Source: an uncultured virus (IMG/VR IMGVR_UViG_3300025087_000057)
Taxonomy: Duplodnaviria; Heunggongvirae; Uroviricota; Caudoviricetes
IMG/VR virus record: IMGVR_UViG_3300025087_000057
DNA length: 64,000 bases
Reading direction: 5' to 3' (one strand)
Position numbers and translations under genes: made by a program. How positions within the stretch are numbered: the stretch's first letter is position 1; every line of letters starts with the position of its first letter. This document shows positions 565 to 22,529 of the stretch, piece by piece. Below the pieces are notes generated by a model. It saw only the letters and a program-made list of their open reading frames with translations, made no database searches and was not told the DNA's origin.

Positions 565-1020
565 TCAAATTTTGTGAAACCATTTTATCCATTCCTCTAA
601 TTTTTCACCGTATTCTATTAGAAAATCTTTTCCAAACAAATACATCAATGATTTTTTATCATCTCCTCCTTTGATGATTCTTATATATTTATAAGTAAAT
701 ATCAAATGTTGTAAGATATCAACACTAAACGAATAGATTTCTCCACCGATGGAGATAAACCAATAATCGGCTTCAGTCGTCTGAATGCCAGAAGGTTTTG
801 TATTGTATTCAAACTCTATTGCTACATTATCAGTATATCCAGACATAATATCATTTTTTATCTCTATCGGGATAGTTATATCCCCTTTTATTACCACCAT
901 ATCATAACTTCTGGAATTTATCAATCTAGCGTGAATTTGGTTGTCGATAAATATCTCAAGAATTTTATTCTCAAGATATTGACCATCTTTTAAATCTTTA
1001 TTAAAATCATAATGTGTCAT
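565..1020 (-). CDS. PD-(D/E)XK-fold endonuclease-like phage protein
   Basis: YD...IEIKND and NVAIEFE...PSGI.TT.ADYW motifs typical of restriction-like phage nucleases. Confidence 0.6.
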   Translation of the reverse strand: MTHYDFNKDLKDGQYLENKILEIFIDNQIHARLINSRSYDMVVIKGDITIPIEIKNDIMSGYTDNVAIEFEYNTKPSGIQTTEADYWFISIGGEIYSFSVDILQHLIFTYKYIRIIKGGDDKKSLMYLFGKDFLIEYGEKLEEWIKWFHKI

Positions 1021-1068: not shown

Positions 1069-2193
1069 TCAATGAAAATCAGTATTATTTTTTAACAATA
1101 AATACTCAGGATTTATATGTTTTAAGACCATTCTGCCACATCTTCCCGTTTTTTCTATTAGCGTTTTAATAACAATTCCTTCTTTAAGCGGTTGTTCCTT
1201 TGAAATTTCCGAACCCTTATTAAAAAATTCGTCTAACAACTCTGGGTTCCATGGTCCTATGTATAATGTATGAGGTAAAATAAAATCTACATTCATAACA
1301 ATATTATCAATATCATAAAACATGTCTCCAAAATCACCATCACTTAAATAGTGTGGTTCTTCCCCGTTTTCATAAACCATAATATCAAAAACCATTAAAC
1401 CTCTTTTGTTTTTCATTCCGTATGTATATCCGTTTTGAATACCATCACCAAAAATTTCCCCATAGATTACACATCCCATGGGAATAGCTTTTTTCAAATT
1501 ATATTTCTCTACCGCTTCTAAATAGACATTATTCGAATAGTAATGTTTTCGACGATTTGAAAATAACTGTAACTGTACATTATGAGAGCCGAAGACAAAC
1601 TCGTATTCAGGAAGAATGTTAAAGAATTTTTTTATCTTTTTCCACCATGTATTCGCTATGGTTGGAACCCATCCGGCTCTAAAGTTGGTTCCATGTACTT
1701 TTTCGGTGATAACAACCATCTCCCCATCAAAAATGTTAGGATAGTTTTTGATGTTCTCAATATCGGTATATTTTCTAAAGAGAGGATGGGTTTTTTTCTT
1801 GCTGACTTGGTATCCACCCTTCATGGTAATAGAGACAGTCGGTTCAAATTTAGTAATACCCAGAGTTTTAGTTACATCAATCCCCTCTTCTCTGGTTGTG
1901 ATTTGAACCGTATCCAAGTCAACTAAGATTCCCTGAGAAATAACACCCCTGAGTTTGATTGTCCTGACTCTACCTTTATCCAACTTTATTTTGGCATTGC
2001 CAAGGATTTTTTCTTCCAACTCAGGGGTGAGAATGGCATCAATCGGGATATAGACAGCAATATCTCCCGATTTGAATTGCCCCTTTCCAACAATACAAAC
2101 CCATCCTCTTATATAAGCCACTTCCAAACGGTCGGCATTCGGATGTGGTTCGATTCTATCGATTGAGACTGTTTCTACTTTAAGTGTTGACAT
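1069..2193 (-). CDS. ATP-dependent RNA ligase, DRB0094/Rnl5 family
   Basis: N-terminal HPNADRLE OB-like domain, motif I TEKVHGTN, YGEIFG, VFDI, EGIVIK, LKHINPEYL. Confidence 0.9.
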   Translation of the reverse strand: MSTLKVETVSIDRIEPHPNADRLEVAYIRGWVCIVGKGQFKSGDIAVYIPIDAILTPELEEKILGNAKIKLDKGRVRTIKLRGVISQGILVDLDTVQITTREEGIDVTKTLGITKFEPTVSITMKGGYQVSKKKTHPLFRKYTDIENIKNYPNIFDGEMVVITEKVHGTNFRAGWVPTIANTWWKKIKKFFNILPEYEFVFGSHNVQLQLFSNRRKHYYSNNVYLEAVEKYNLKKAIPMGCVIYGEIFGDGIQNGYTYGMKNKRGLMVFDIMVYENGEEPHYLSDGDFGDMFYDIDNIVMNVDFILPHTLYIGPWNPELLDEFFNKGSEISKEQPLKEGIVIKTLIEKTGRCGRMVLKHINPEYLLLKNNTDFH

Positions 2194-2829: not shown

Positions 2830-3309
2830 TCAAAAATATGAGCTAAAAATTTTTTCTATATATTCTTCTTTATCGTTTGATTTTACAAAACATTCGGGAC
2901 ATACTAAATAAGTGTCACCACCATCGTTCTCCTTAAAAACCATATATCTTTTCTTGTGGATGAAGCATTTCTTAAAAGGATTATTTTTGCGTATATATAA
3001 TTTTCCATTTTTATTTAATAAATTGAAATCATAAAACATTTTATAGGTATTCTTACTAATACCCCAGTTCAACAATTGTTTTTCGTAAACAAATGACTTA
3101 ATTGGCGTATAGAGAAAAAGGGGATAAAAACTCAGCCAAATTGTGGAAATACTTGTTATTAGAGATATGTTTATAAAAATACTACAATCTTGTTGATTGA
3201 CAAGGGCAGATAACCACATTAATCCAAATACAAAAGTAAATAATAGTCCAAACGTTAACAAAAACAGGCTTCTATTAGTCCAAGTTTCTCTTATTCTTTT
3301 ATACCACAT
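2830..3309 (-). CDS. membrane protein with C-terminal CxxH/CxxC motifs
   Basis: Two hydrophobic segments; CFIH...CPEC. Confidence 0.6.
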   Translation of the reverse strand: MWYKRIRETWTNRSLFLLTFGLLFTFVFGLMWLSALVNQQDCSIFINISLITSISTIWLSFYPLFLYTPIKSFVYEKQLLNWGISKNTYKMFYDFNLLNKNGKLYIRKNNPFKKCFIHKKRYMVFKENDGGDTYLVCPECFVKSNDKEEYIEKIFSSYF

Positions 3310-3839: not shown

Positions 3840-3856
3840 CTATATACATTATACGC
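3840..3856 (-). promoter_or_regulatory. phage promoter motif copy (GCGTATAATGTATATAG)
   Basis: Matches the copies at 6651-6665, 11720-11734 and 11805-11820. Confidence 0.55.
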
Positions 3857-4310
3857 TTATCTTATTATTTTTATTCATTTTTATATATCTATCAGATAAA
3901 ATAATTGAACCAGCGACAGAGACATTCAATGAAAAATCGTAAAGTGTTGGGATATAAACAGTTGGATATATATTAGTAATTTCCTTAGGGATACCATAAT
4001 CTTCGGCTCCCAATAAATAAATCCCCTGTTCGGGATGGATAAAATTAGAAAGAGAATGAGAGGTTTCTGTTTTTTCGATACAAATAAGCCGTGAATCTTT
4101 GGGAATACTGTTTTCAAAAGTATTAAAATCATGATAATCAAAAAGAGGGATACTCAAATAAGCCTTACTGGTATCGGTTTTGTGATTTTTATATCGATTG
4201 CCAATTGTGAAAATAAACGAAGCTCCAAAAAGGTGTGCCGACCTCCACAATGTTCCTATATTTTGTGGAAACTTATTTCCTATGATTCCAATTCCGCAAT
4301 AACCTCTCAT
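3849..4310 (-). CDS. SpoU/TrmH-family RNA 2'-O-methyltransferase
   Basis: NIGTLWRSA, LGAEDYGI and SLNVSVAGSI SPOUT motifs. Confidence 0.9.
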   Translation of the reverse strand: MRGYCGIGIIGNKFPQNIGTLWRSAHLFGASFIFTIGNRYKNHKTDTSKAYLSIPLFDYHDFNTFENSIPKDSRLICIEKTETSHSLSNFIHPEQGIYLLGAEDYGIPKEITNIYPTVYIPTLYDFSLNVSVAGSIILSDRYIKMNKNNKISV

Positions 4311-5277: not shown

Positions 5278-5388
5278 TTTCCCCAACAGAACTTGAACCC
5301 GTAGTCGATGGATTAGTAAACAAATTTTAATTTATTAATACTTATGCAATTAGAAATCCATTACTTTATCCAATTGAGTTATGAGGAA
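5278..5388 (-). tRNA. tRNA-Arg(TCT) with ~37-nt intron at position 37/38
   Basis: Acceptor TTCCTCA/TGGGGAA; D-loop TTGGATA (A20); ATGGA-TTTCTA[37 nt]A-TCCAT; T-arm ACGGG-TTCAAGT-TCTGT. Confidence 0.75.
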
Positions 5389-5916
5389 TTATATTGATAT
5401 AATATAAAATCTATTGTCCATCCCTATATATTTGTCTAAAAGACCTAAAACACTATTCCACGAAAGTTCCCCATTTCCACAACCTGGTCTTGGGATAATT
5501 ATTTTTTTCCATTCATTTATGTCGGCTAAATAAATAATCTGCCTTAAAGACCTTTCTATAATTTCTAAAGTAGCTTTAGCAGCCCAACCTGGAACTATAT
5601 CACCACATTGGAATTTATCAGCCATGTGTTTTACCACATTGCTTTTATCTTCATAACAAATAGTTTGTCTTGGTTTTACTGGAAAAGAATAAATAGAATA
5701 TTTATTATATTTAATAAGTGGAAAAACGCTATTCCCAAAAAGAGAAATTCCCTGTCCCAAAATAGCCTCAAGATTTTGTCCCGGATATAATTTAACGGCT
5801 TGTTTGGCTACTCCCCTACCCATAACCCCATTTCCATTGGCTTTTACGAATCCATTAGTTGTGACACAAATTACATCGGCTTTTTGTTGAAAAATATTTC
5901 CAGAAATAAGATGCAT
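5389..5916 (-). CDS. macro domain (ADP-ribose binding/hydrolase) protein
   Basis: GNIF...ICVTTNG...VMGRGVAKQA...FPVK...IPRPGCGNGELSW; start moved to MHLISG. Confidence 0.85.
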   Translation of the reverse strand: MHLISGNIFQQKADVICVTTNGFVKANGNGVMGRGVAKQAVKLYPGQNLEAILGQGISLFGNSVFPLIKYNKYSIYSFPVKPRQTICYEDKSNVVKHMADKFQCGDIVPGWAAKATLEIIERSLRQIIYLADINEWKKIIIPRPGCGNGELSWNSVLGLLDKYIGMDNRFYIISI

Positions 5917-6116: not shown

Positions 6117-6247
6117 TGACAGGAGAAGGATTTGAACCTCCGAAGCTTGCGCGACAGATTTACTGAAGTAATTCATTACAGTCTGTTGCCATTACTGAAG
6201 AGGTGATAACTTCTTCCGTTGTTCACTAACCACTCGGCCATCCTGTC
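6117..6247 (-). tRNA. tRNA-Tyr(GTA) with two small inserts (D-loop 34 nt, anticodon loop 16 nt)
   Basis: Removing 6193-6226 and 6160-6175 restores GGCCGAGTGGTTAATGGC and ACAGA-CTGTAAA-TCTGT; acceptor GACAGGA/TCCTGTC+A. Confidence 0.8.
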
Positions 6248-6261
6248 TAATTCTTATTTAT

Positions 6262-6429
6262 TTGAGCAAAGTGGCAGGACTCGAACCTGCAAAAGGACTT
6301 TCTTGGTGGCATTTATTAGTTCCTCGGCCTTAAGGAATCCTTGCGGACGGCTTAGAGCAAGTAAGCCTACATCGCCACATCGCCGGTATTTCAACTTATC
6401 ATAGCGTTTACATTCCGCCACACTTTGCT
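6262..6429 (-). ncRNA. tRNA-ended ncRNA with a ~110-nt multibranch domain replacing the anticodon/variable arms
   Basis: Terminal stem AGCAAAGTG/CACTTTGCT; D-like GCG-GAATGTAAA-CGC; T-arm GCAGG-TTCGAGT-CCTGC; three internal hairpins. Confidence 0.65.
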
Positions 6430-6435
6430 TTTTTA

Positions 6436-6534
6436 GGAAACAGAAGGAGTATAGTATCTCATATAAGCCGATATCAAGCTTCCACCCCTTTGATACAGGC
6501 TTGTGGCTACCCTTTTATACCCCTAACCTGCTCC
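6436..6534 (-). ncRNA. rod-shaped structured RNA candidate with a central bubble
   Basis: Pairings GGAGCAG/CTGTTTCC, AGGGGTATA/TATACTCCT, AAGCC/GGCTT, TATCAA/TTGATA; no ORF. Confidence 0.45.
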
Positions 6535-6547
6535 ACCACGAATTTTT

Positions 6548-6651
6548 TGGCAAAGTCTCAACAGATTCGAACTGTTCATGCAACCAGCACTATCCCGGAT
6601 TCGAACCGGATGGGGTAGCTAACCCTCTTCGACCATCTCGTTGACTTTGCC
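6548..6651 (-). ncRNA. tRNA mimic with two D-like and two T arms
   Basis: 9-bp terminal stem GGCAAAGTC/GACTTTGCC+A; T-arms TCCGG-TTCGAAT-CCGGG and AACAG-TTCGAAT-CTGTT. Confidence 0.7.
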
Positions 6652-10578: not shown

Positions 10579-10799
10579 GATGGCAGACTCACTTTCCGAA
10601 TCTCCATGGATTCCAAAAGAGGCTCATTTTGCCAATTCTTCTGTAACTTTTTGGCATCAGGTATTGAATCAAAAAAAGCCGTTGAGCCATAAAATTCTTT
10701 TACCTTAGTTTTTTCCGTAGGAATCAGGGGAAGCCAATAAGAGTCCCCACTCTTGAACACTCCCCAAACTCCATACTTTTCGAATAAGTTTTTCTTCAT
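10575..10799 (-). CDS. hypothetical protein
   Basis: 74-aa ORF with AAGGA SD. Confidence 0.6.
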   Translation of the reverse strand: MKKNLFEKYGVWGVFKSGDSYWLPLIPTEKTKVKEFYGSTAFFDSIPDAKKLQKNWQNEPLLESMEIRKVSLPS

Positions 10800-10815
10800 A
10801 AATTCCTTTCTTTTA

Positions 10816-10888
10816 TATTGGGAGAGGGATTCGAACCCTCACTGGATAGGGTCTAAGCCTATTGCCTCTACCGTTGGGCTACCCCAAT
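10816..10888 (-). tRNA. tRNA-Leu(TAG), short variable loop
   Basis: ATAGG-CTTAGAC-CCTAT; A73. Confidence 0.85.
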
Positions 10889-11698
10889 AATATCTCCAAT
10901 GTTACTTGACCCAAAACTAAACTGTAGTCCATTTCCATGGTGACACATGCTTGCCACCATTTGCAATAAAGAATCAGCCTTTTTATAATCAATCTTAGAT
11001 GGTAAAACTGATTTTTCTCTTATATTTTGTAAATCACTGAATCCATTTTCGGCCAACTCTTTTACTTCTTCCAATGAATATTTCCCCTCTTTGATATCCA
11101 TTAAAAATTGATGGTCATTATCTCTAAAAATTTTAACTTTTCCGGTTTCAAGAATTTCTTTTCCCATTGTTAGCAAACGGACTAAATGAGAGGCATTCTT
11201 CGTATCGTAGCCATATCTTTCAACAAGAGCCTTTCTTTTTTCTCCCATATATCCCTCTCTATGGCCGTGTTGCATTTTTTGTAATTGAGAGTAGGCATAT
11301 CCACTAAAAGCCTGATAAATTCCATCAGTATAAAGGAACTCTTCTCTGTGGTCAATTAATATTTGCCCTGCTACTGTAATTGTTTTATAAAATTCTCTTT
11401 CATTCCATAACAAAGAAAATATATTAGGGTTACATTTCATTAACAATCGAAAAAACTTTTTTACCTCATACGAAACGATGTCATTGGGGTTATCTTTTGT
11501 TGGCAATTGTTCATATTGTTCTATTTTATTTAATCCATAATAATAAGATACCGGAGCCGAAAATACCCCAATCCAATCAATATCGTCAATACCATGCTCA
11601 TCCATTGAGGGTTTATAAAGTCCATGAGCAATACTTCCCCTTAAACAATACAACAAGTGTCTTTGCCCAATTTCTTCTTCTAATTTTGAGTCTATCAT
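10868..11698 (-). CDS. YcgL/Nuc-transf family (pol-beta-like) nucleotidyltransferase
   Basis: GSIAHG...DDID..GVF; KCNPN; YDTKNASHLVRLL. Confidence 0.85.
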   Translation of the reverse strand: MIDSKLEEEIGQRHLLYCLRGSIAHGLYKPSMDEHGIDDIDWIGVFSAPVSYYYGLNKIEQYEQLPTKDNPNDIVSYEVKKFFRLLMKCNPNIFSLLWNEREFYKTITVAGQILIDHREEFLYTDGIYQAFSGYAYSQLQKMQHGHREGYMGEKRKALVERYGYDTKNASHLVRLLTMGKEILETGKVKIFRDNDHQFLMDIKEGKYSLEEVKELAENGFSDLQNIREKSVLPSKIDYKKADSLLQMVASMCHHGNGLQFSFGSSNIGDIIGVAQR

Positions 11699-12349: not shown

Positions 12350-12448
12350 GGGGCTAAATGGTGTCGATTTGGGTGTTGTGACTCTTTGGGAGTTTGCCTG
12401 ACAAGGCGGTAACACCCGAAGACCTCGGTTCGATTCCGAGTAGCTCCA
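12350..12448 (+). ncRNA. minimal tmRNA-like RNA (tRNA-like domain only)
   Basis: GGGGCTA/TAGCTCC+A with G3:U70; stemless D-region ending TCGA; 11-bp helix; GAC linker; T-arm CTCGG-TTCGATT-CCGAG. Confidence 0.8.
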
Positions 12449-12455
12449 TTTTATT

Positions 12456-13200: not shown

Positions 13201-13959
13201 ATGAGGAAGGGAAGTTTTATGTTACCACCTATCAGCATTATTATGCCAGTATATAATCAACGTAAACATCTTCTTGAGGTTGCCGCGCGGTCGGCTATCA
13301 ATCAGATTGGGGTCGAGGGTGAACTTATTATTATTAACGATGGTTCTACAGACAATTGCATGGAAGTCCTTAATTTTGTACCATCGAGCAGTAATATAGA
13401 AATAAAAGTTATAAGTAGAGTTGAAAATGGTGGTGTTGCCGCCGCATTAAACGATGGGATTAAGGCTTCTCAAAATGAATATATTGCATGGTTGCCTTCC
13501 GATGATTATTTTATGCCTGAAAAAACATTGGTTCAATTATCTAATATGATAGAAGCAAAAACTTTGTTTTCTTTTACTGCCTTCCATCAACTGGTTTGGG
13601 AAAATGGAGTTCTTACTGAAGTTCAGGCAGTTCCCACCCCCTACCCATCGGGAAAAATTGGGGCAGTCCAGTTACATCAAGCATTATTAAATCGATTTCC
13701 TTCGTGTTTTCTTAACGGGGCATCAATTATGGTACATAAAGAAGTTTTTAATAAGGTTGGTTTGTTTGATGAGGATTTAAAATATACCCAGGATTACGAT
13801 ATGTGGTTAAAAATAACGGAATATTATGACACTTTTGTTAATGCTGACGCTTTAATGGTCAAAAATATCCACGACAATCAGATGGAATTTATCTTTAAAA
13901 ATAAGACCGAACAAAGAGCAATAGAAGAGGGGATTTTAAAAAAGAGGTATTTATCTTAA
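13201..13959 (+). CDS. glycosyltransferase family 2
   Basis: ISIIMPVYN...IINDGSTD...WLPSDD...QDYDMW. Confidence 0.92.
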   Translation: MRKGSFMLPPISIIMPVYNQRKHLLEVAARSAINQIGVEGELIIINDGSTDNCMEVLNFVPSSSNIEIKVISRVENGGVAAALNDGIKASQNEYIAWLPSDDYFMPEKTLVQLSNMIEAKTLFSFTAFHQLVWENGVLTEVQAVPTPYPSGKIGAVQLHQALLNRFPSCFLNGASIMVHKEVFNKVGLFDEDLKYTQDYDMWLKITEYYDTFVNADALMVKNIHDNQMEFIFKNKTEQRAIEEGILKKRYLS

Positions 13960-14924
13960 TGAATGTTGCTTTTATTTCCGATAAAGATGGAGGAGGAACC
14001 TTGGGGCATTATTCTTCCTTGATTAACAAGTTTACTTCTCATCATAGCGACTGTATTGTTAATTACAATCCGTATCAATTTAAAGTAGATTATGAGAGTA
14101 GGGACTCAGATAACGGCAAAATAGGTACAATATGTCGGTATATTTTAACAAATGCTGACATTTTGGTTTTTAACAATGGCTATGAATCGGTTGATTTCGC
14201 ACAACGGGCATTTGAGTGGAAATTTGATGTCACTCAAAAAAACTTTTTCTTTTATGGTGATATAAATTACTTTGAGGAAAAAAGAAAATATAACCTAAAA
14301 GTTCCCGTCCTTACTACTCAATACATTATTAAGAATTTCTTTGATACATATGTTTACGAGGCAGACAAAACTATTTATATTCCAATTGCTATTGATACTG
14401 GTTCCGCTAATTATAATAACAAAATAAAATATGCCAATAAAATTGGTATTGTTCATGCTCCCGCAAGTCGTCAGAATAAAAATACCGAAGGATTTCTTTC
14501 AGTTAATTCATATGTAGAAATGTTTTTTGATAGTGCAACTTTTGATATTATAGAAAATGTTTCTTGGAAAAAGTCTTTATCAGATAAAAAAAAATATCAA
14601 ATCGGAGTTGACCATATTAATCCCAATTATGGGTATTATGGCATAAGTTCACTGGAAAATTCCGCCATTGGATTATTTAATTGTGTTAATCTCCCAATAG
14701 ACGAGGCAATTTATTTATGTAGTATGGTTGAATGTGATATTATGCCATGGGCATTTACATCTGATGAAGGAGCTTTATATGAAGTTGTTGGTGCATATAT
14801 TAAGAGTCCCGAAAGCCTTTTTCAAGACAGGGTAAGAACGAAGAAATGGTTTGATGAATCATGGGATGGCAAAAAAATTATCAATAAAGTAATGCAAGCT
14901 ATGGAGGAAAGATGTACGATTTAG
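13959..14924 (+). CDS. GT-B fold glycosyltransferase-like protein
   Basis: IVHAPASRQNKNT...GVDHI...YGISSLENSAIG; paralogous to 15280-16302. Confidence 0.7.
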   Translation: MNVAFISDKDGGGTLGHYSSLINKFTSHHSDCIVNYNPYQFKVDYESRDSDNGKIGTICRYILTNADILVFNNGYESVDFAQRAFEWKFDVTQKNFFFYGDINYFEEKRKYNLKVPVLTTQYIIKNFFDTYVYEADKTIYIPIAIDTGSANYNNKIKYANKIGIVHAPASRQNKNTEGFLSVNSYVEMFFDSATFDIIENVSWKKSLSDKKKYQIGVDHINPNYGYYGISSLENSAIGLFNCVNLPIDEAIYLCSMVECDIMPWAFTSDEGALYEVVGAYIKSPESLFQDRVRTKKWFDESWDGKKIINKVMQAMEERCTI

Positions 14925-15283
14925 ACCCCGATGGAGATTTTGGTTTTAATAAATATCAACAAAAGGCTCATGAAACTGCTGAGTATCCAAATATATATGT
15001 TGGGGGACATCCTTCTAATTATATTTATGCTGCCATGGGATTAGCGGGAGAGTCAGGTGAACTAATTGAAAAATTAAAAAAGGTTGTTCGTAACAAGAAT
15101 GGTCTTGTTGCGGAGTCTGATTTATTTGATATTAAAAAAGAGGTTGGGGATGTTTTGTGGTATCTGTCTGAATTATGTACCTGTCTTAATCTTAGTCTGA
15201 AACAAATAGCAAGAGAAAACATTAAAAAGTTATCTGATAGAAAAAACAGGGGTGTTATCAAATCGGAAGGGGATAATAGATGA
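14912..15283 (+). CDS. MazG-like NTP pyrophosphohydrolase
   Basis: GLAGESGE..EKLKK...KEVGDVLWY...NIKKL.DR. Confidence 0.9.
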   Translation: MYDLDPDGDFGFNKYQQKAHETAEYPNIYVGGHPSNYIYAAMGLAGESGELIEKLKKVVRNKNGLVAESDLFDIKKEVGDVLWYLSELCTCLNLSLKQIARENIKKLSDRKNRGVIKSEGDNR

Positions 15284-16302
15284 ATATACTTTGGGTAGGA
15301 GCAGTCGATGCAAGTGGAGCCTGTATGGCTTACTGCAATGCTATCAATAAAGGTGGTGAACATAATTGCCGTTTAGTGACTCAATTCGAAACAAGGGGAT
15401 TTGATAGCGATATTGTTATACAAAGAGATATGTGGTCGATTCCCGATGGGAGAACAAAAGAGGATAAAATAGAGGAATTTAAAAGTTTGGTTGAAAAGGC
15501 TGATGTAGTTATTTTTAACGCTGCTCTTTTCCCTGGTATTGGGTCTTCCTATTCCCAGGTTGTATCAGATACATATGAAATGCAATGGTACGGTATCAAT
15601 TGGTATGATTATATTGATAAAAAGAAATTTTTTGTATTTTTTTCTGGTTCTTGTTCTTTAAGGGGAAATTATCAGTATTATATAGATTTGCACACTAAAT
15701 ATAATATTCCTATTATTACATGTCAGACAGATGTATATAAAAATATTAAAAATTTAGCCGAAAATATTACCTATCTTCCAAACTTGATTAATAATAATCA
15801 TCCTCGCTATTTAAGAACTCCTTCTTATGAAGAAAAAATTCATATCGTACATTCTCCCACTGACAGAAGAGTAAAAAACACCAGTGAATTCACGAGGGTT
15901 TGTCGTAGATTAAAGAGGGAGTTCGATTACTTAGATTTTTCTCTTATTGAAAATAAAGGCTATAATGAATCTATTGTTATTAAGCAAAATAGTCAAATAG
16001 GTTTTGACCATATGCAGGGATATTATAGTTTGTCTTCTGTGGAAAATGGTTGTTTGGGATTGATTAATGTGGTGGGGTTATCTGAATGGGGCATTGAATT
16101 TATTGAGGATAGTATCGGGGGAGGCTCTCTTCCTTGGGTTACCCCAAGAAATGAAGAAGAACTTTATGCAAATATAAAATATTTAGTTGAAGATAGAGAA
16201 AGGTTATACCAATTAAGACTACAATCGTATAATTGGCATCACAAATATTGGAGAGATGATATTCATATTAAAAAGTTAATTAATGTTCTGGGGGGGAAAT
16301 GA
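15280..16302 (+). CDS. GT-B fold glycosyltransferase-like protein
   Basis: IVHSPTDRRVKNT...GFDHMQGYYSLSSVENGCLG. Confidence 0.7.
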   Translation: MNILWVGAVDASGACMAYCNAINKGGEHNCRLVTQFETRGFDSDIVIQRDMWSIPDGRTKEDKIEEFKSLVEKADVVIFNAALFPGIGSSYSQVVSDTYEMQWYGINWYDYIDKKKFFVFFSGSCSLRGNYQYYIDLHTKYNIPIITCQTDVYKNIKNLAENITYLPNLINNNHPRYLRTPSYEEKIHIVHSPTDRRVKNTSEFTRVCRRLKREFDYLDFSLIENKGYNESIVIKQNSQIGFDHMQGYYSLSSVENGCLGLINVVGLSEWGIEFIEDSIGGGSLPWVTPRNEEELYANIKYLVEDRERLYQLRLQSYNWHHKYWRDDIHIKKLINVLGGK

Positions 16303-17108
16303 AAGTTATAGGTATAGCACAAGTTTATAATGAAGCTATTAATTTAGAAAGATTTCTTAAATATTATAAAGAAATTTGCGATGATATTATCTTACTCGAT
16401 GATGCTTCTACTGATAATACAGTTGAAATAGCAAAAAAATATACCGATAATGTTATTTCAAATAAAGAAAATAGATGGAAACATCAAATGGAAACTTTTA
16501 ATAAAGATTTCTTATTGCAAGAAGCCAAAAAAATGGGGGCAGAATGGGTTGTAAATTTTGATGCTGATGAAATTTTTGAAGCACAGTTTAACAGAGAAAA
16601 ATTAGATAAGGCAATTGATTGGGCGGAGTTTTCAATAAAAAGAGGAATTCCTACTTATTCATATGGAGCAGCGTGGATTAATTTGTGGTTGTCGGAAGCC
16701 TATTTTAGAGTTGATGGAGGGCTTACTATGGTTTCTCCTCCAAGAATATATAAGGTTTTAAGCGATGCCAAAATAGAAACTGTTGGAGGATTACATAGAA
16801 GGTTGTGGCCTTCATATGCGGACAATCCATATCAATTACCATTTAACTTATTACACTATAGTTCAGCTTCTCTGCCGGGAGTTATTTATAAAATTACTCG
16901 TTATTATAAGTTGGGTAAAAAATTTCCCAATATTGAGATGGCCAAACAGCACTATATTTATAATTTATTAAAAGGAACGCAGATTGCAAAAGTCCCCCCC
17001 CTGTGGTTCCCCAATGAACTAAGACCAATATATAGTCCCATTAATTTAAGTGCTCTTCATAATGAAATATCTAACGCTATTGAATATATGATGGAGAATG
17101 AAAAATGA
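16299..17108 (+). CDS. glycosyltransferase family 2-like
   Basis: VYNEA...LLDDASTD...FDADE...LLHY. Confidence 0.85.
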   Translation: MKVIGIAQVYNEAINLERFLKYYKEICDDIILLDDASTDNTVEIAKKYTDNVISNKENRWKHQMETFNKDFLLQEAKKMGAEWVVNFDADEIFEAQFNREKLDKAIDWAEFSIKRGIPTYSYGAAWINLWLSEAYFRVDGGLTMVSPPRIYKVLSDAKIETVGGLHRRLWPSYADNPYQLPFNLLHYSSASLPGVIYKITRYYKLGKKFPNIEMAKQHYIYNLLKGTQIAKVPPLWFPNELRPIYSPINLSALHNEISNAIEYMMENEK

Positions 17109-18196
17109 AAATACTTTTAGACAGTATGTCAAGACGATTCGGGGATACCTTAACTGCTCTTCCTTTTACTTCTTTATTTAGAGAGAAATTTGGCAAAGAT
17201 GTTCATATAACATTTGGAAGTAGTCCATATGAATCAGATATTGAGTTTTATCGACATATTTCGACTATTGATGATGTTGTTTTAGGAACTCTATATAATC
17301 CCTCTGGGCGTGGATACGATATGTCTTTTGATATAATTTTAAGAACATCTTTTGATGTTGATGTAAAATTTTCACCACATAAAATTTTTGGAGAACTAGA
17401 TACAAAAGAGGGATGGGACATATGTATGAAAAATTACCCTATAAAATTTTTATATTACAACAAATCACACAAATTTCCTAAAACAAAAAAAAGAATTGGT
17501 CTGTTCGTTAATTTTCCTAGAAAAGATATTTCTATCCCAGTTGAAATTGGAGTTTATCCCGTTAACCTATGGCAACAACTTATTAATATTCTTAATAAAA
17601 AATATCACGTTTATGTTTTTACTGGGATGATGGAACCAGACTATAACTTCGACAATTGCCATAATCTTGGAAAACTAAAAGCCTGTGACGAATTAAGTGT
17701 TACTTCAAATATGGATATCGTAATCGGAACATCTTGTGGTTTTATGGATATGGTAGCAACTTTCGCAGATATTCCCAAAATAGTTTTAAGTAGTTGTGAA
17801 GAAGATGAAACATGTGTTTGGTCTGGAATACCCGATAAGTGTACCTTACCACAAAATAGATATAATTATTTTATTTCACCGAGGGATGATATGTATAGTT
17901 TTATTAAGCCATCGAAGGGAGCCAGATTAGTTGAATGGTATTATCAACATCTTCTAAAAAAAATGCCATTGATTAGAAATATGAGAAGTTTAAGTGGAAT
18001 TGACCCATTAATCATATCAGAACATATTGACTATCTTTTAAGTGGTGGAAAATCCGTAGAATGGTTTGTAGAAGGACATGTTTGTGATACATGTAAACTA
18101 AAAAAAGACTTTAATCAGTGTTCATATGTTTATAAGCCCTCTTTAAAGGATGGAAGTTATTATAAAGGAAATTGGGATGGATATAACACAAGATAA
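17105..18196 (+). CDS. GT9 (heptosyltransferase)-like glycosyltransferase
   Basis: RFGDTL...P; IVIGTSCGFMDMVA...IPKIVL resembles the GT9 DSG.MH.A motif. Confidence 0.6.
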   Translation: MKILLDSMSRRFGDTLTALPFTSLFREKFGKDVHITFGSSPYESDIEFYRHISTIDDVVLGTLYNPSGRGYDMSFDIILRTSFDVDVKFSPHKIFGELDTKEGWDICMKNYPIKFLYYNKSHKFPKTKKRIGLFVNFPRKDISIPVEIGVYPVNLWQQLINILNKKYHVYVFTGMMEPDYNFDNCHNLGKLKACDELSVTSNMDIVIGTSCGFMDMVATFADIPKIVLSSCEEDETCVWSGIPDKCTLPQNRYNYFISPRDDMYSFIKPSKGARLVEWYYQHLLKKMPLIRNMRSLSGIDPLIISEHIDYLLSGGKSVEWFVEGHVCDTCKLKKDFNQCSYVYKPSLKDGSYYKGNWDGYNTR

Positions 18197-18295
18197 AAAT
18201 AGTTTAGAGATAATAATCACTGAGTTAAAACAGAAGATAGGTGATTTAGAAAAGAGAATAGAAAAAATAGAGTATTTTTTTAAGGGTCCAAAATC

Positions 18296-19249
18296 ATGTT
18301 AACCCACATTTTTATTATTACAATATGTTCATATTTAATAACCCTATTGGAAAGAAGAGCGACATGGGATATTGGCCATCAGGCAATTGGGATTGGGGCT
18401 GTTAATAGAGTGGTAAATAATGAAGCGGGTATGCCTACTCAACATCGTCCATTGTCGTATTTACTTATGCATATTTTGAGATTAAATACTATAGATTGGC
18501 AAATGGGAGTCGTCTATCTTCCTCATAGGAAAATTCACATTCATATAAAAGCAGATACAATAAATCAATACTATATCTTAAAATTTTTTCTAATATTGGG
18601 TTCATCATTGACCTTTTACTGGTATCTGTGGATACTGTGTTTTAACCCATTGGTGGGGTCATTATTGTTTCTTTTGTTTGTATCGTTTGGGTTTATGTTT
18701 GATTATATAGACTGTTATCTTGATATTATTTTTATTGGATTAGTTTTAATTGGAATTTTAAGTAATTTCCCTATGTGGATAATTGGCCTTGTGATTTTGA
18801 TGGGGTCATTAAATAGAGAAACGATTGTTGTTGTTGTTCCATTTGTTTTTTATTACTATGGATTACCCTATGGTATTGCTTTAACAGGAACATTTTTGCT
18901 TGGGAGATTTTTAATAAAAAAGATGTATCCACGGAAATATAAAATCAGTTTCGTTGGATGGGATGTTTATAGGGATATAAAAAATATTTATAAAGGAATA
19001 AATTCTCCAAAAGAAACTTTTATAAATGAAGTTTGGGGAGGGGTTGTTTTTGTATTACTTTACATCTCTTTATTTTTTATAAATGAGAAATTTACAATAA
19101 TGCCTATAGAAATACGCAATATCATATCCGTTGGATATATAATTTTTGGTATTTTCATAATTTTAATATCAATTCCCGGTGACATCAGAGAAATAAGAAT
19201 ATATTACCCAACTTTATATGTTGTTATACCACTATTAATGTCTTTATAA
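18296..19249 (+). CDS. polytopic membrane protein, GT-C-like
   Basis: About 9 TM segments; QHRPL loop, NRET motif, EIRIYYP; located inside the GT cluster. Confidence 0.55.
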   Translation: MLTHIFIITICSYLITLLERRATWDIGHQAIGIGAVNRVVNNEAGMPTQHRPLSYLLMHILRLNTIDWQMGVVYLPHRKIHIHIKADTINQYYILKFFLILGSSLTFYWYLWILCFNPLVGSLLFLLFVSFGFMFDYIDCYLDIIFIGLVLIGILSNFPMWIIGLVILMGSLNRETIVVVVPFVFYYYGLPYGIALTGTFLLGRFLIKKMYPRKYKISFVGWDVYRDIKNIYKGINSPKETFINEVWGGVVFVLLYISLFFINEKFTIMPIEIRNIISVGYIIFGIFIILISIPGDIREIRIYYPTLYVVIPLLMSL

Positions 19250-19259
19250 TGGAGGAAAG

Positions 19260-19496
19260 ATGCAAACAATAGGAGAATTAATAGATAAATTGACAATAGC
19301 GAATATTCGGCTATGGCATCTGGAGGATATACGTAGAAACAAAAATTTGACAAATGATGAAAGGTTAAAGGCGTGTGATTCTGTTTCTGTTGTTAATAAG
19401 CAAAGAAATAATTTGATTGATGAGATAGACAAATGTATTGACGATGCTATCCATAATGGAGAAGCACCAGTTTTTTTGAAGAATAAACTTTATTGA
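19260..19496 (+). CDS. DUF4254-like small helical protein
   Basis: TIGELIDKLTI.NIRLWHLED...NKQRNNLIDEID. Confidence 0.6.
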   Translation: MQTIGELIDKLTIANIRLWHLEDIRRNKNLTNDERLKACDSVSVVNKQRNNLIDEIDKCIDDAIHNGEAPVFLKNKLY

Positions 19497-19506
19497 AAGG
19501 AAAGTA

Positions 19507-20457
19507 ATGGCTAATATTGTTGTAACAGGAGCGTTGGGGACTTTGGGTTCACCGTTGGTTAGAAAACTTGTTGAAGATGGGCATAATGTTTATAGTATAG
19601 ACCTTATGCATAGTGGTAGACCAAATTATATTAGAGCCGATGTTGGTGATTTTAGAGAAATTTCGAATGCTTTTATGGCGATAGAAAGTTCTCTTGTAAA
19701 ACAGGGAAAGGGACATATAGATTTTGTCTATCATCTGGCGGCTGAATTTGGTCGTATCAATGGAGAGATGTATTATAATAAAGTATGGGAAACAAATGTC
19801 ATAGGAACTAAAAATATTCTTGAACTACAAAAGTTTGGGCTTTTTGATAAACTTATTTTTGCGAGTTCCAGTGAGGTTTATGGGGAAACGGAAGTTAATC
19901 CCATTAACGAAAGCTCTTTTGGCAATCCATTAGTAGTTCCACATAACGACTACGCTATTTCAAAAGCAGTTAACGAGATGCAAATTATAAACCATCGTAA
20001 ACGTAATGAGTTGCCAGTAATGACAATCAGACTCTTCAATGCTTATGGGCCGGGAGAACATTACCATCCATTTAGAAGTGTTGTTTGTCTGTTTTGTTAT
20101 TATGCGTTGAATGGACTTCCTTATAATGTTTATGAAGGTTATCATAGGGTTTTTATGTATGTTGACGACTTGATTCCCACCTTAGCCAGATGTGCTGGAC
20201 TATTTTCAGATGGACTTACTATTAATATTGGTGGTGAGGAATATCGTTCCGTAAAAGAAATGAGTGATATTGTTCTTAAGACTATCGGTATCGATGATTC
20301 TAAGGTTAACTATCTTCCTCTTGATAAGCACAATACCGTTAACAAAAGGCCCGACATAACACTTGCTAAAGAAATTTTAAAGCACAACCCCTCTACCACT
20401 CTTGAAGAAGGTATTCCAAAGACTATCGAGTGGATGAAACGTGTTTACAACATATAG
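19507..20457 (+). CDS. NAD-dependent nucleotide-sugar epimerase/dehydratase
   Basis: TGALGTLG, HLAA, SSSEVYG, YAISK, RLFNAYGPG. Confidence 0.92.
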   Translation: MANIVVTGALGTLGSPLVRKLVEDGHNVYSIDLMHSGRPNYIRADVGDFREISNAFMAIESSLVKQGKGHIDFVYHLAAEFGRINGEMYYNKVWETNVIGTKNILELQKFGLFDKLIFASSSEVYGETEVNPINESSFGNPLVVPHNDYAISKAVNEMQIINHRKRNELPVMTIRLFNAYGPGEHYHPFRSVVCLFCYYALNGLPYNVYEGYHRVFMYVDDLIPTLARCAGLFSDGLTINIGGEEYRSVKEMSDIVLKTIGIDDSKVNYLPLDKHNTVNKRPDITLAKEILKHNPSTTLEEGIPKTIEWMKRVYNI

Positions 20458-20463
20458 GTAAAT

Positions 20464-21558
20464 ATGAAGAGAGTATGTTTAATAATCGGAGCGAGGCCAA
20501 ACTTTGTTAAAGCGGCCTCGCTTTATAAAGCATTTCAGGAGTATCCCGAAATAAAATTAACAATTGTTCATACTGGGCAACATTATACTGAAGTTTTGTC
20601 AGATGATATTATAAATCAAATTGGACTTAAGGTTGATGTTAATTTGAATGTTTATTCATCTCTGTATTCCGATTTAATAACTGCAATTGATAAGTATTTA
20701 TCTAAAAACGAGTTTGACATGATGATTATTTTGGGTGATGTTAATTCTTCTTTTGCAGGAGCATACGTAGCTAAAAACAGGGGAATTCCATTGGCTCATG
20801 TAGAATCTGGATTACGTTCTGGTTTATGGTATATGCCTGAAGAATTAAATAGGTTTCTTATAGATGCACTATCTGATTATTTATTTTTTACAAATGTAAG
20901 TGCGATGGGAAATGTTTCTGACGAATTTGTTGACAAGAAAAAATTCTTAGTTGGTAATATTATGATAGACACATTAGTAGCGATGGAATCGTATATAAAA
21001 GAATCGGAATATAATGGGGAAGATTACGCAATAGCTACTTTCCATAGGAAGGAAAATATCAGTACGAAGGAATCTATATTAGAGATATTAGACTTATTGA
21101 AAAGTATAAAAAAAATAATTCCTGTAAAATTTTATGTTCATCCACATTTTACTGTTAATATGTCAAGGTTTTTAACATCAACAGAACTAGAATATTATAG
21201 AGATGGCAACTTAATGGAATCTATGTATTCTCCGATTTCATATTTGGACTTTATTAAAGAACTCCATCATTCAAAATTTGTTATTACGGATTCGGGAGGA
21301 GTACAAGAAGAGTCATGTATTATGAATAAACCCTGTCTTGTCTATAGGAAAAATACAGATAGACCTATTACAATTTTACTTTCTGGAACCGTTGTTACTC
21401 AGAATTTTGAAAAAATCATTGAATTTGCAAAAAAACAAAATAATATTCCAATCAATAAGAGCTGGGATAGCAAAGCCAAAAATCATATGTGGGGAGATGG
21501 TCAGGCAGGAAAAAGAATAGCAAAAATTATTAACGATATACTAAAGGAAGGGAAATGA
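20464..21558 (+). CDS. wecB: UDP-N-acetylglucosamine 2-epimerase (non-hydrolysing)
   Basis: GARPNFVK, HTGQHY, HVESGLRS, MPEELNR, TDSGGVQEE. Confidence 0.92.
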   Translation: MKRVCLIIGARPNFVKAASLYKAFQEYPEIKLTIVHTGQHYTEVLSDDIINQIGLKVDVNLNVYSSLYSDLITAIDKYLSKNEFDMMIILGDVNSSFAGAYVAKNRGIPLAHVESGLRSGLWYMPEELNRFLIDALSDYLFFTNVSAMGNVSDEFVDKKKFLVGNIMIDTLVAMESYIKESEYNGEDYAIATFHRKENISTKESILEILDLLKSIKKIIPVKFYVHPHFTVNMSRFLTSTELEYYRDGNLMESMYSPISYLDFIKELHHSKFVITDSGGVQEESCIMNKPCLVYRKNTDRPITILLSGTVVTQNFEKIIEFAKKQNNIPINKSWDSKAKNHMWGDGQAGKRIAKIINDILKEGK

Positions 21559-22529
21559 ATAAAAAAAGAATTACATTTTTATGTCCTAAGAGTCAGGACT
21601 CATTTTTATTGCCGATTATTGAGTATTTCACTAAACATAATGAATATAAGGCGATTCATTATCATGGGGGTGACGACCAAGATTTCTATAAAACACTTCA
21701 GAGTTCTGATATTGCATGGTATGAATGGGCCAATCAAGATGTTGTTAATATTAGTAGAGGACCGAGATATAGTAAGCAAATATGCCGATTACATAGTTAC
21801 GAATTCTTTGAAGGACTACATTTACAAATTAACTGGAATAAATTTGATAGACTTGTTGTTGTTAACGATAGCTTAAAGGAACTTATTTTGGGGGGTATTC
21901 AAAATATGATTCCTCCATTAAAAATTTCTCCTGATTTTATAGAAGTTATTCCAAATGGGGTGGATGTTAGTAAATTTAATTTTAATGAAAATAAAACATA
22001 TAACAAGAAAATAGCCTTTATCGGATTTGTTAATCATAAAAAATCACCCGACTTGTTAATCCAATGTTTTAATGCTATCCATAAACTTGACCCTGAATTT
22101 ACATTTCATATGGCAGGTTTATACCAAGACCCAAGAACTCTTCTAACTTTTAGATATCTTGAAAAGTATCTTGATTTTCCTATTAATTACGATGGATACA
22201 TTGAAGATGTTAATGATTATTTCGCTGATAAAGATTATGTTATATCAACATCTTCATTTGAATCGTTCCATTATTCTATTGCCGAGGGCATGGCTTCAGG
22301 ATGTTTTCCATTGGTCTATAATTGGTTTGGTTCGGATAATATTTACCCAAGGGAGAATATTTTCACAACAACTAATCAATTGGTTTCTATTGTTGAAAAA
22401 ATAAATAACAGTAATCCAAATGAAATTATGGAACAAAGAAACAAGGCAAGAAAATATATTGTTGATAATTTTTCACTTGACGGCCAACTAAAAGATATAG
22501 AAAGATTATTTAAAAATATTTTGGAGTAA
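21555..22529 (+). CDS. glycosyltransferase family 4
   Basis: IPNGVD...KK...ESFHYSIAEGMASG (EX7E). Confidence 0.88.
   Translation: MNKKRITFLCPKSQDSFLLPIIEYFTKHNEYKAIHYHGGDDQDFYKTLQSSDIAWYEWANQDVVNISRGPRYSKQICRLHSYEFFEGLHLQINWNKFDRLVVVNDSLKELILGGIQNMIPPLKISPDFIEVIPNGVDVSKFNFNENKTYNKKIAFIGFVNHKKSPDLLIQCFNAIHKLDPEFTFHMAGLYQDPRTLLTFRYLEKYLDFPINYDGYIEDVNDYFADKDYVISTSSFESFHYSIAEGMASGCFPLVYNWFGSDNIYPRENIFTTTNQLVSIVEKINNSNPNEIMEQRNKARKYIVDNFSLDGQLKDIERLFKNILE

Follow-up and report, generated by a model that had tools for sequence, protein, structure and literature searches.

How does a bacteriophage come to carry a tRNA-Tyr gene that is interrupted twice, and how could such a gene still provide a tRNA? 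According to PMC4033280, the introns of bacterial tRNAs belong only to the self-splicing groups I and II, and for the inserts that have been reported in phage tRNA genes since 2019 neither the removal route nor the origin is known. The tRNA-Tyr gene considered here lies at 6117-6247 on the minus strand of the window, the whole 64,000-nucleotide stretch of DNA that we analysed, and the window is contained in a 117,395-bp virus record whose termini overlap by 126 nt. This record is probably a complete circular assembly; its own classification, linear and 68% complete, is at odds with the terminal overlap. Its bacteriophage hallmarks include DnaE, DnaB, DnaG, RuvB/RuvC, sigma-70, SpoVG, terminase and tail genes, of which DnaE, DnaG, sigma-70 and SpoVG point to a bacterial host, and the genome is contained in metagenomes from groundwater and soil; none of the 12 runs listed for it is an RNA run, which has no bearing on expression. 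Elsewhere in the genome, ribonucleotide reductase (with an HNH domain) and DnaE each carry an intein (window 23375-26323; L100 644-4609), and the cluster of glycosyltransferases and sugar epimerases at window 13201-22529 is unusually extensive for a 117-kb phage.

Removal of 34 nt (6193-6226) and 16 nt (6160-6175) from the minus strand of 6117-6247 leaves 81 nt, which ARAGORN identifies as tRNA-Tyr(gta); this call and the intact cloverleaf agree with the preliminary description of the locus, according to which the two deletions yield a canonical 81-nt tRNA-Tyr(GUA). The interrupted 131-nt gene is missed by ARAGORN at default settings and has no Rfam tRNA match at E<=10. All 21 stem pairs of the product are formed (19 Watson-Crick, two G-U), and it has a 7-nt anticodon loop, U8, A14, G15:C48, G18G19, A21, U33, A37, a standard T-loop, A73 and a 12-nt variable arm. 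The exons show no sign of decay and together carry what characterizes a bacterial tRNA-Tyr: the cloverleaf, the GUA anticodon, G1-C72, A73 and a long variable arm. Exon 1 (6227-6247, minus strand, as are all parts of the gene) comprises the 5' strands of the acceptor and the D-stem and the D-loop up to the target TA (6228-6227). Exon 2 (6176-6192) comprises the 3' strand of the D-stem, the 5' strand of the anticodon stem and the anticodon GUA, with its target TA at 6178-6177 corresponding to U35-A36, and exon 3 (6117-6159) comprises the 3' strand of the anticodon stem, the variable arm, the T-arm, the 3' strand of the acceptor and A73, with no CCA encoded.

Where exactly do the inserts begin and end? 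The D-loop insert has three equivalent junction registers and the anticodon-loop insert five, 37/38 being among the latter. Comparison with insert-free relatives, which had been suggested as a check, settles one of the two lengths: at two of 11 loci, an intact phage tRNA-Tyr has the same 17-nt middle exon running directly into the 3' strand of the anticodon stem, and because these two genes continue without a gap the anticodon insert is fixed at 16 nt. The D-loop length is not fixed in this way, as D-loop lengths vary among intact tRNA-Tyr genes and tRNA shape alone permits 34-36 nt; we chose 34 nt because it fits the TA repeat that is common to both inserts.

Do the inserts belong to a recognized class of intron? 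A strict bulge-helix-bulge, in which 3-nt bulges at the two junctions flank a central helix of 4 bp, fits none of eight registers (three for the D-loop, five for the anticodon loop), with at most two of the four central pairs formed, in agreement with the earlier statement that none could be folded at this locus. The inserts had also rightly been judged too short for group I or group II introns: they measure 34 and 16 nt and match none of the Rfam introns at E<=10, and the catalytic RNA core of group I introns is given as ~100 nt in PMC4033280. Neither insert folds better than its shuffles (z -0.65 and +0.35), and the cloverleaf stems form around the inserts, with -31.4 kcal/mol for the constrained and -35.6 kcal/mol for the free fold. 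The suggestion of a non-canonical splicing route for this tRNA-Tyr is plausible. Its counterpart, that loop inserts shield the tRNA from host nucleases, found no support of its own; shielding would require splicing anyway, because an unspliced anticodon loop of 23 nt presumably could not decode.

A repeat occurs in four dispersed copies in the phage genome, and the 34-nt insert is one of them. The other three lie outside the window, none of them in a tRNA, at genome positions 10788-10823 (minus strand), 17912-17947 (plus strand) and 113175-113210 (plus strand), the last with a ribosome site and short ORF downstream of it on the same strand. Including the flanking TA, each copy is 36 nt long, with pairwise identities of 30-33/36 and 28 invariant columns; an nhmmer profile retrieves the four with E 1.5e-11 to 1.9e-10, the next match having 0.35. 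The element forms an imperfect dyad over the whole 36 nt, with arms that start TA-GTGAAC and TA-CTGAAG and a variable centre, and the D-loop insert represents its full length, a 32-nt core and the repeated TA (6194-6193); its dyad mismatches outnumber those in two of the remaining three copies. At the junctions, all four long copies have a repeat of exactly TA and the short one (TA register 6161-6176) has a repeat that contains TA, and TA stands at both ends of all five. The 16-nt insert retains the TA, TGAA and the last 8 nt of the element, 18 nt being missing, and only four of 234,776 genomic 14-mers, itself included, match the element ends as well as its core does. It thus appears to be an internally deleted copy in which both ends were kept. 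Both inserts have TGAA at or next to their start and end in CTTCAGTA, which, with the rarity of the 14-mer, confirms the kinship already noticed between them. The shared ends had been taken as a recognition signal; the sharing stands, its specificity for tRNAs does not, as three more TA-bounded copies lie outside tRNAs. With dispersed non-coding copies in differing flanks (four full, one short) and terminal inverted repeats, the family has the makings of a MITE. TA duplication is typical of IS630/Tc1-type elements, and MITEs are usually far larger than the 32- and 14-bp cores found here, a core of 14-32 bp being very short for transposase synapsis. Altogether, the inserts are very probably a TA-targeting mobile mini-element and not bulge-helix-bulge introns.

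Why do two copies sit in one tRNA gene, and both in loops? The mature tRNA has two TA dinucleotides only and both are occupied, so the loop positions need no special explanation. Under uniform insertion, the chance of two insertions in any one tRNA gene is ~1e-3, and local hopping, local copying or selection is therefore needed. No copy lies within an ORF, although 88% of the TA sites do, which implies that the element is not generally spliced from mRNA (probability ~2e-5 if mRNA splicing rescued such copies). Two of the non-tRNA copies are intergenic; the third contributes a stop codon, and the ribosome site after it is preserved. Relative to the nearest ORF each of the three runs antisense, while both tRNA copies are sense, a contrast that is weak with five copies. 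The antisense orientation is nonetheless not what an RNA route would favour, in which protein-spliced tRNA introns spread by reverse splicing, as has been proposed for Thermoproteales, and the non-tRNA copies are strays. Such an origin would suit the presence of related inserts at two positions in one tRNA, one of them compatible with 37/38, and similar introns at different tRNA positions are reported for archaea in PMC4033280. With no bulge-helix-bulge, EndA or reverse transcriptase and with a bacterial host, however, we consider it very unlikely.

Searches outside this genome used the short form of the element only for IMG/VR and GTDB genomes, with no loci in either, and for JGI metagenomes, where six loci were all identical to the phage genome itself. 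Among 11 related virus records there was no real match (one with three mismatches has no TA at its start, and nhmmer gave none in eight stretches), and none of significance in plasmids and cultured phages. An autonomous partner with the same ends was found neither in the phage genome nor in the collection scans, which again used the short form only. None of 78 viral tRNA-Tyr loci has an insert that ends in CTTCAGTA, and 12 loci picked out by a D-loop pattern as insert-bearing tRNAs proved not to be tRNAs. Comparison with the intact tRNA-Tyr genes supports an empty site for the anticodon insert only; none was seen for the three non-tRNA copies, and homologues of the genes flanking the copy at genome 17912 are absent from the related loci examined. 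No close relative was found by capsid protein alone or in prokaryote genomes, and alignment gave 11 distant loci. In the literature covered, outside of which lie most subscription papers and bioRxiv supplements, we found neither this element reported nor any phage tRNA with two interruptions.

Inserts of other kinds also occur. In other phages, tRNA-shaped genes have anticodon-loop inserts of 18-45 nt unrelated to the element (L007 607-858, L074 297-416, L087 2412-3489, L131 3187-3290 and L132 15412-15517). A non-coding stretch of high conservation, which has a T-loop-like hairpin and is not a tRNA-Tyr, occurs at L081 ~2900-3200 and at ~50 similar viral loci. Within the window, a tRNA-Arg(UCU)-like gene (5278-5388, minus strand) has a 37-nt AT-rich insert in its anticodon loop, with a TA-containing repeat of 5 nt at its borders. 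We did not accept this insert as a reversed copy of the element, with shuffle p values of 0.0015-0.04 in eight uncorrected comparisons and no HMM match.

The tRNA-Tyr gene is embedded in a minus-strand tRNA cluster with 12 ordinary tRNAs and ends 2 nt before a tRNA-Ser. A sigma-70-like promoter match (6448-6477, minus strand; 10/12 consensus) stands upstream of the run formed by a tRNA-like RNA, Tyr, Ser and Ser; it is a consensus match only, seven such sites having been found against 5.9 expected by chance. The tRNA-shaped RNA directly upstream of tRNA-Tyr (6264-6428, minus strand) contains a large insert: its 8-bp acceptor includes an extra pair of the His type, its D- and T-arms are normal, and ~100 nt of hairpins replace the anticodon arm. 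It has no convincing match in Rfam. Further structured RNAs are a minus-strand one at window 6548-6651 (z -2.26; no Rfam match), in which an acceptor-like stem of 9 bp is accompanied by two T-loop hairpins, and a miniature tmRNA-like RNA of ~100 nt at window 12350-12451 (plus strand; Rfam 49.8 bits, z -4.88), which has a tRNA-like domain and could not accommodate a tag ORF. A similar miniature tmRNA-like RNA adjoins the tRNA cluster of relative G001 (L127 713-823, minus strand).

Has the gene been maintained since it was interrupted? The only strain comparison, one low-depth contig from another study (run X8; 247 nt, depth 3), spans 6158-6404 without gaps and contains both inserts. It differs from the phage at three of the 34 positions of the long insert and at none of the 213 others (Fisher p=0.002); unchanged are 40 exon bases, the 16-nt insert, the 16-nt spacer and, in the upstream RNA, 141 nt (6264-6404). 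Set against the 40 exon bases, the long insert gives p=0.09 and both inserts together p=0.17. One of the three changes is the state of all three other copies, one is that of a single copy and one is new; the return to the state of the other copies implies that the insertion predates the split and that both lineages have diverged since. Other X8 pieces differ from the phage at 10/205, 9/151 and 26/152 bases. All eight changes listed for two neighbouring ORFs fall at third codon positions; the piece with 26 changes has many at first and second positions and possibly derives from a less closely related virus, and the X8 pieces may belong to different strains. At divergences of 5-17%, zero changes in 40 exon bases have a probability of 0.13 to 0.0006. 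The sequences thus modestly favour retention of the exons, and it may also be that this segment is simply little diverged, its 16-nt spacer also being unchanged.

These data weigh on the possibility that the gene is a young pseudogene, in which the same TA-targeting element disrupted a dispensable tRNA-Tyr, a second copy did no further harm and nothing is spliced. The other three copies are found only where they would be harmless without splicing, the inserts fold weakly, and 158 ORFs and six-frame searches gave no splicing nuclease. In addition, the nearest relative by capsid (60% identity, incomplete record) has 12 clustered tRNAs with no tRNA-Tyr beside its two tRNA-Ser, and the gene may be dispensable on this account; four more distant virus records carry an intact tRNA-Tyr. 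However, a pseudogene would not be expected to keep its exons undecayed while the long insert changed in both lineages, the probability just given for unchanged exons counts against it, and the short insert lost 18 nt yet kept both of its ends. We therefore regard a pseudogene as somewhat unlikely.

Could the gene instead have been retained in its unspliced form, as a tRNA-shaped shell that signals processing within the tRNA operon or draws off host anti-tRNA nucleases as a decoy? The acceptor and T-arm are intact, the stems tolerate the inserts, tRNA-Ser follows almost immediately, and this phage and its relatives carry other insert-bearing tRNA-shaped RNAs. Neither function would need an intact anticodon, D-loop or Tyr-type variable arm, yet all of these are kept, unchanged where X8 covers them, and retention without splicing seems unlikely to us. 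Finally, the element might be excised from the phage DNA during infection, which would restore the gene. A 2-bp self-complementary repeat around a dyad would be suited to staggered-cut recombination, but 16 bp are too short to loop out, no recombinase was found, and no deletion or joint at the locus is seen in any of four DNA runs, of which one covers it fully, one partly and two (X7, X10) barely, in contigs that drop rare variants and with X2 possibly being the source sample. A switch at the DNA level is, in our view, very improbable.

Which enzymes could then act on the precursor RNA? The phage encodes RtcB (PF01139, E 3.5e-72), an Rnl2-type ATP-dependent RNA ligase that is a candidate sealing enzyme (1069-2193, minus strand; PF09414 and PF21189) and the RNA-repair nucleotidyltransferase RlaP (10868-11698, minus strand; PF10127). 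With a SpoU methylase and a macro domain, these make up a set for RNA repair and modification, located at L098 4883-6037 (genome coordinates) and, in the window, at 3849-4310, 5389-5916 and the two intervals just given. RtcB, Rnl2 and RlaP are treated as ordinary phage RNA-repair genes in PMC7824862, according to which RtcB joins cyclic-phosphate/5'-OH ends and Rnl2-type enzymes 5'-phosphate/3'-OH ends; such genes are common in phages, and their presence proves nothing for splicing of tRNA-Tyr. A search for an EndA-like nuclease was unsuccessful: PF01974 is absent from the six-frame search, and we rejected one candidate, a PD-(D/E)XK-fold nuclease adjoining the Rnl2-type ligase (ORF 565-1020, minus strand). 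Among the matches listed for its model (pLDDT 96) are RecU, Hje/Hjc, I-Ssp6803I and restriction enzymes, and its predicted fold most resembles that of Holliday-junction resolvases and not that of EndA. Transposase, recombinase, reverse transcriptase, GIY-YIG (PF01541), RNase III and EndA were not found in the 158 ORFs, nor were these families in any of nine six-frame family searches, the controls of which worked.

The best explanation that we can offer, although somewhat less likely than not, combines a mobile element with RNA excision, such that the inserts would be spliced from the tRNA-Tyr precursor. A tiny non-autonomous 32-bp imperfect inverted repeat would have been inserted at TA in DNA, leaving TA on both sides, by an enzyme of the host or one formerly present that the phage does not encode. 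A full copy would have entered the TA of the D-loop and a second copy that of the anticodon, the latter being shortened to its two ends later on, and the gene would have stayed useful through removal of the element from the precursor RNA. In this RNA the element ends may pair, through UA, a purine-purine mismatch, and UGAA with UUCA. If both UA repeats were cut at an identical position, with a 2-nt stagger, exactly 34 and 16 nt would be removed, and the exons could be sealed by the phage RtcB or by the Rnl2-type ligase, depending on end chemistry. A 2-nt stagger is that of RNase III products, although the stems here are short for RNase III.

What appears to be new is an interrupted phage tRNA whose inserts have an identifiable mobile origin, a dispersed TA-bounded mini-element, with splicing as a candidate route for their removal. 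With 131 nt, two inserts, an exact predicted product and two candidate ligases in the same genome, the tRNA-Tyr gene offers a very small test substrate, which bears both on the splicing of phage tRNA inserts and on RtcB-dependent excision of inverted-repeat elements in prokaryotes. If nothing is spliced, the element would still be an unusually small mobile element, and phage 'tRNA introns' could then be element insertions.

How does this gene compare with known systems? Lak megaphages have tRNA introns described as 'enigmatic' and non-self-splicing, also in tRNA-Tyr(GTA) (Devoto et al, 2019, PMC6784885), and our phage shares with them phage tRNA genes, tRNA-Tyr(GTA) included, that are split by inserts of this kind. 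The Lak inserts that we examined are ~80-115 nt long, single, located in the anticodon loop and with tRNA-like T-arms, whereas ours measure 34 and 16 nt, interrupt a single gene twice, once in its D-loop, and are members of a repeat family that extends outside tRNAs. Several short related inserts at canonical and non-canonical sites are also reported for Thermoproteales, with their multi-intron genes and transposed bulge-helix-bulge tRNA introns (PMC4033280); our phage differs in having no bulge-helix-bulge, no EndA, a bacterial host and TA-bounded intergenic copies. MITEs, which occur in prokaryotes and phages according to PMC11602168, are likewise non-coding, dispersed and mostly intergenic, with inverted ends, TA on both sides and no transposase of their own, but here no parent IS was found and two copies lie inside an intact-looking tRNA. 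Palindromic repeats of 20-50 nt that spread in trans are described for REP with TnpA-REP (PMC8266576) and for the NTS/SRM-Ssn hairpin repeats (PMC11893778), and our element is similar in this respect. We rejected an assignment to either: none of the five copies has the GTAG/CGTC tag beside the hairpin, there is no Y1 gene, and TnpA-REP is reported to cut at CT or CA, not TA (PMC8266576); the SRM consensus is found in none of the five copies, and the GIY-YIG Ssn gene is absent (no PF01541).

The proposed logic comes closest to the SOS splicing of DNA transposons, in which pairing between the inverted ends of the RNA is combined with excision of the element and ligation by RtcB (PMC12779559). 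SOS splicing is demonstrated there for animal mRNA, depends on AKAP17A and CAAP1 and lacks precision, whereas here a phage tRNA would be concerned, exactness would be required and the process is a proposal. A bacterial or archaeal version of SOS splicing is named as an open test by the authors of PMC12779559. By analogy, the inverted-repeat element, 16-34 nt in length, could be an exact phage tRNA intron today and its excision a prokaryotic counterpart of SOS splicing, which is possible but doubtful; the ends can pair and RtcB is present, the pairing being weak. A nuclease other than the rejected EndA candidate would then cut the UA repeats, RtcB or the Rnl2-type ligase would seal the exons, and the 16-nt copy would represent the minimal signal. 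With sense copies in the tRNA and antisense copies elsewhere, only one strand would be a substrate of this nuclease. Should this reading hold, the gene would be a snapshot of the birth of an intron from a DNA element.
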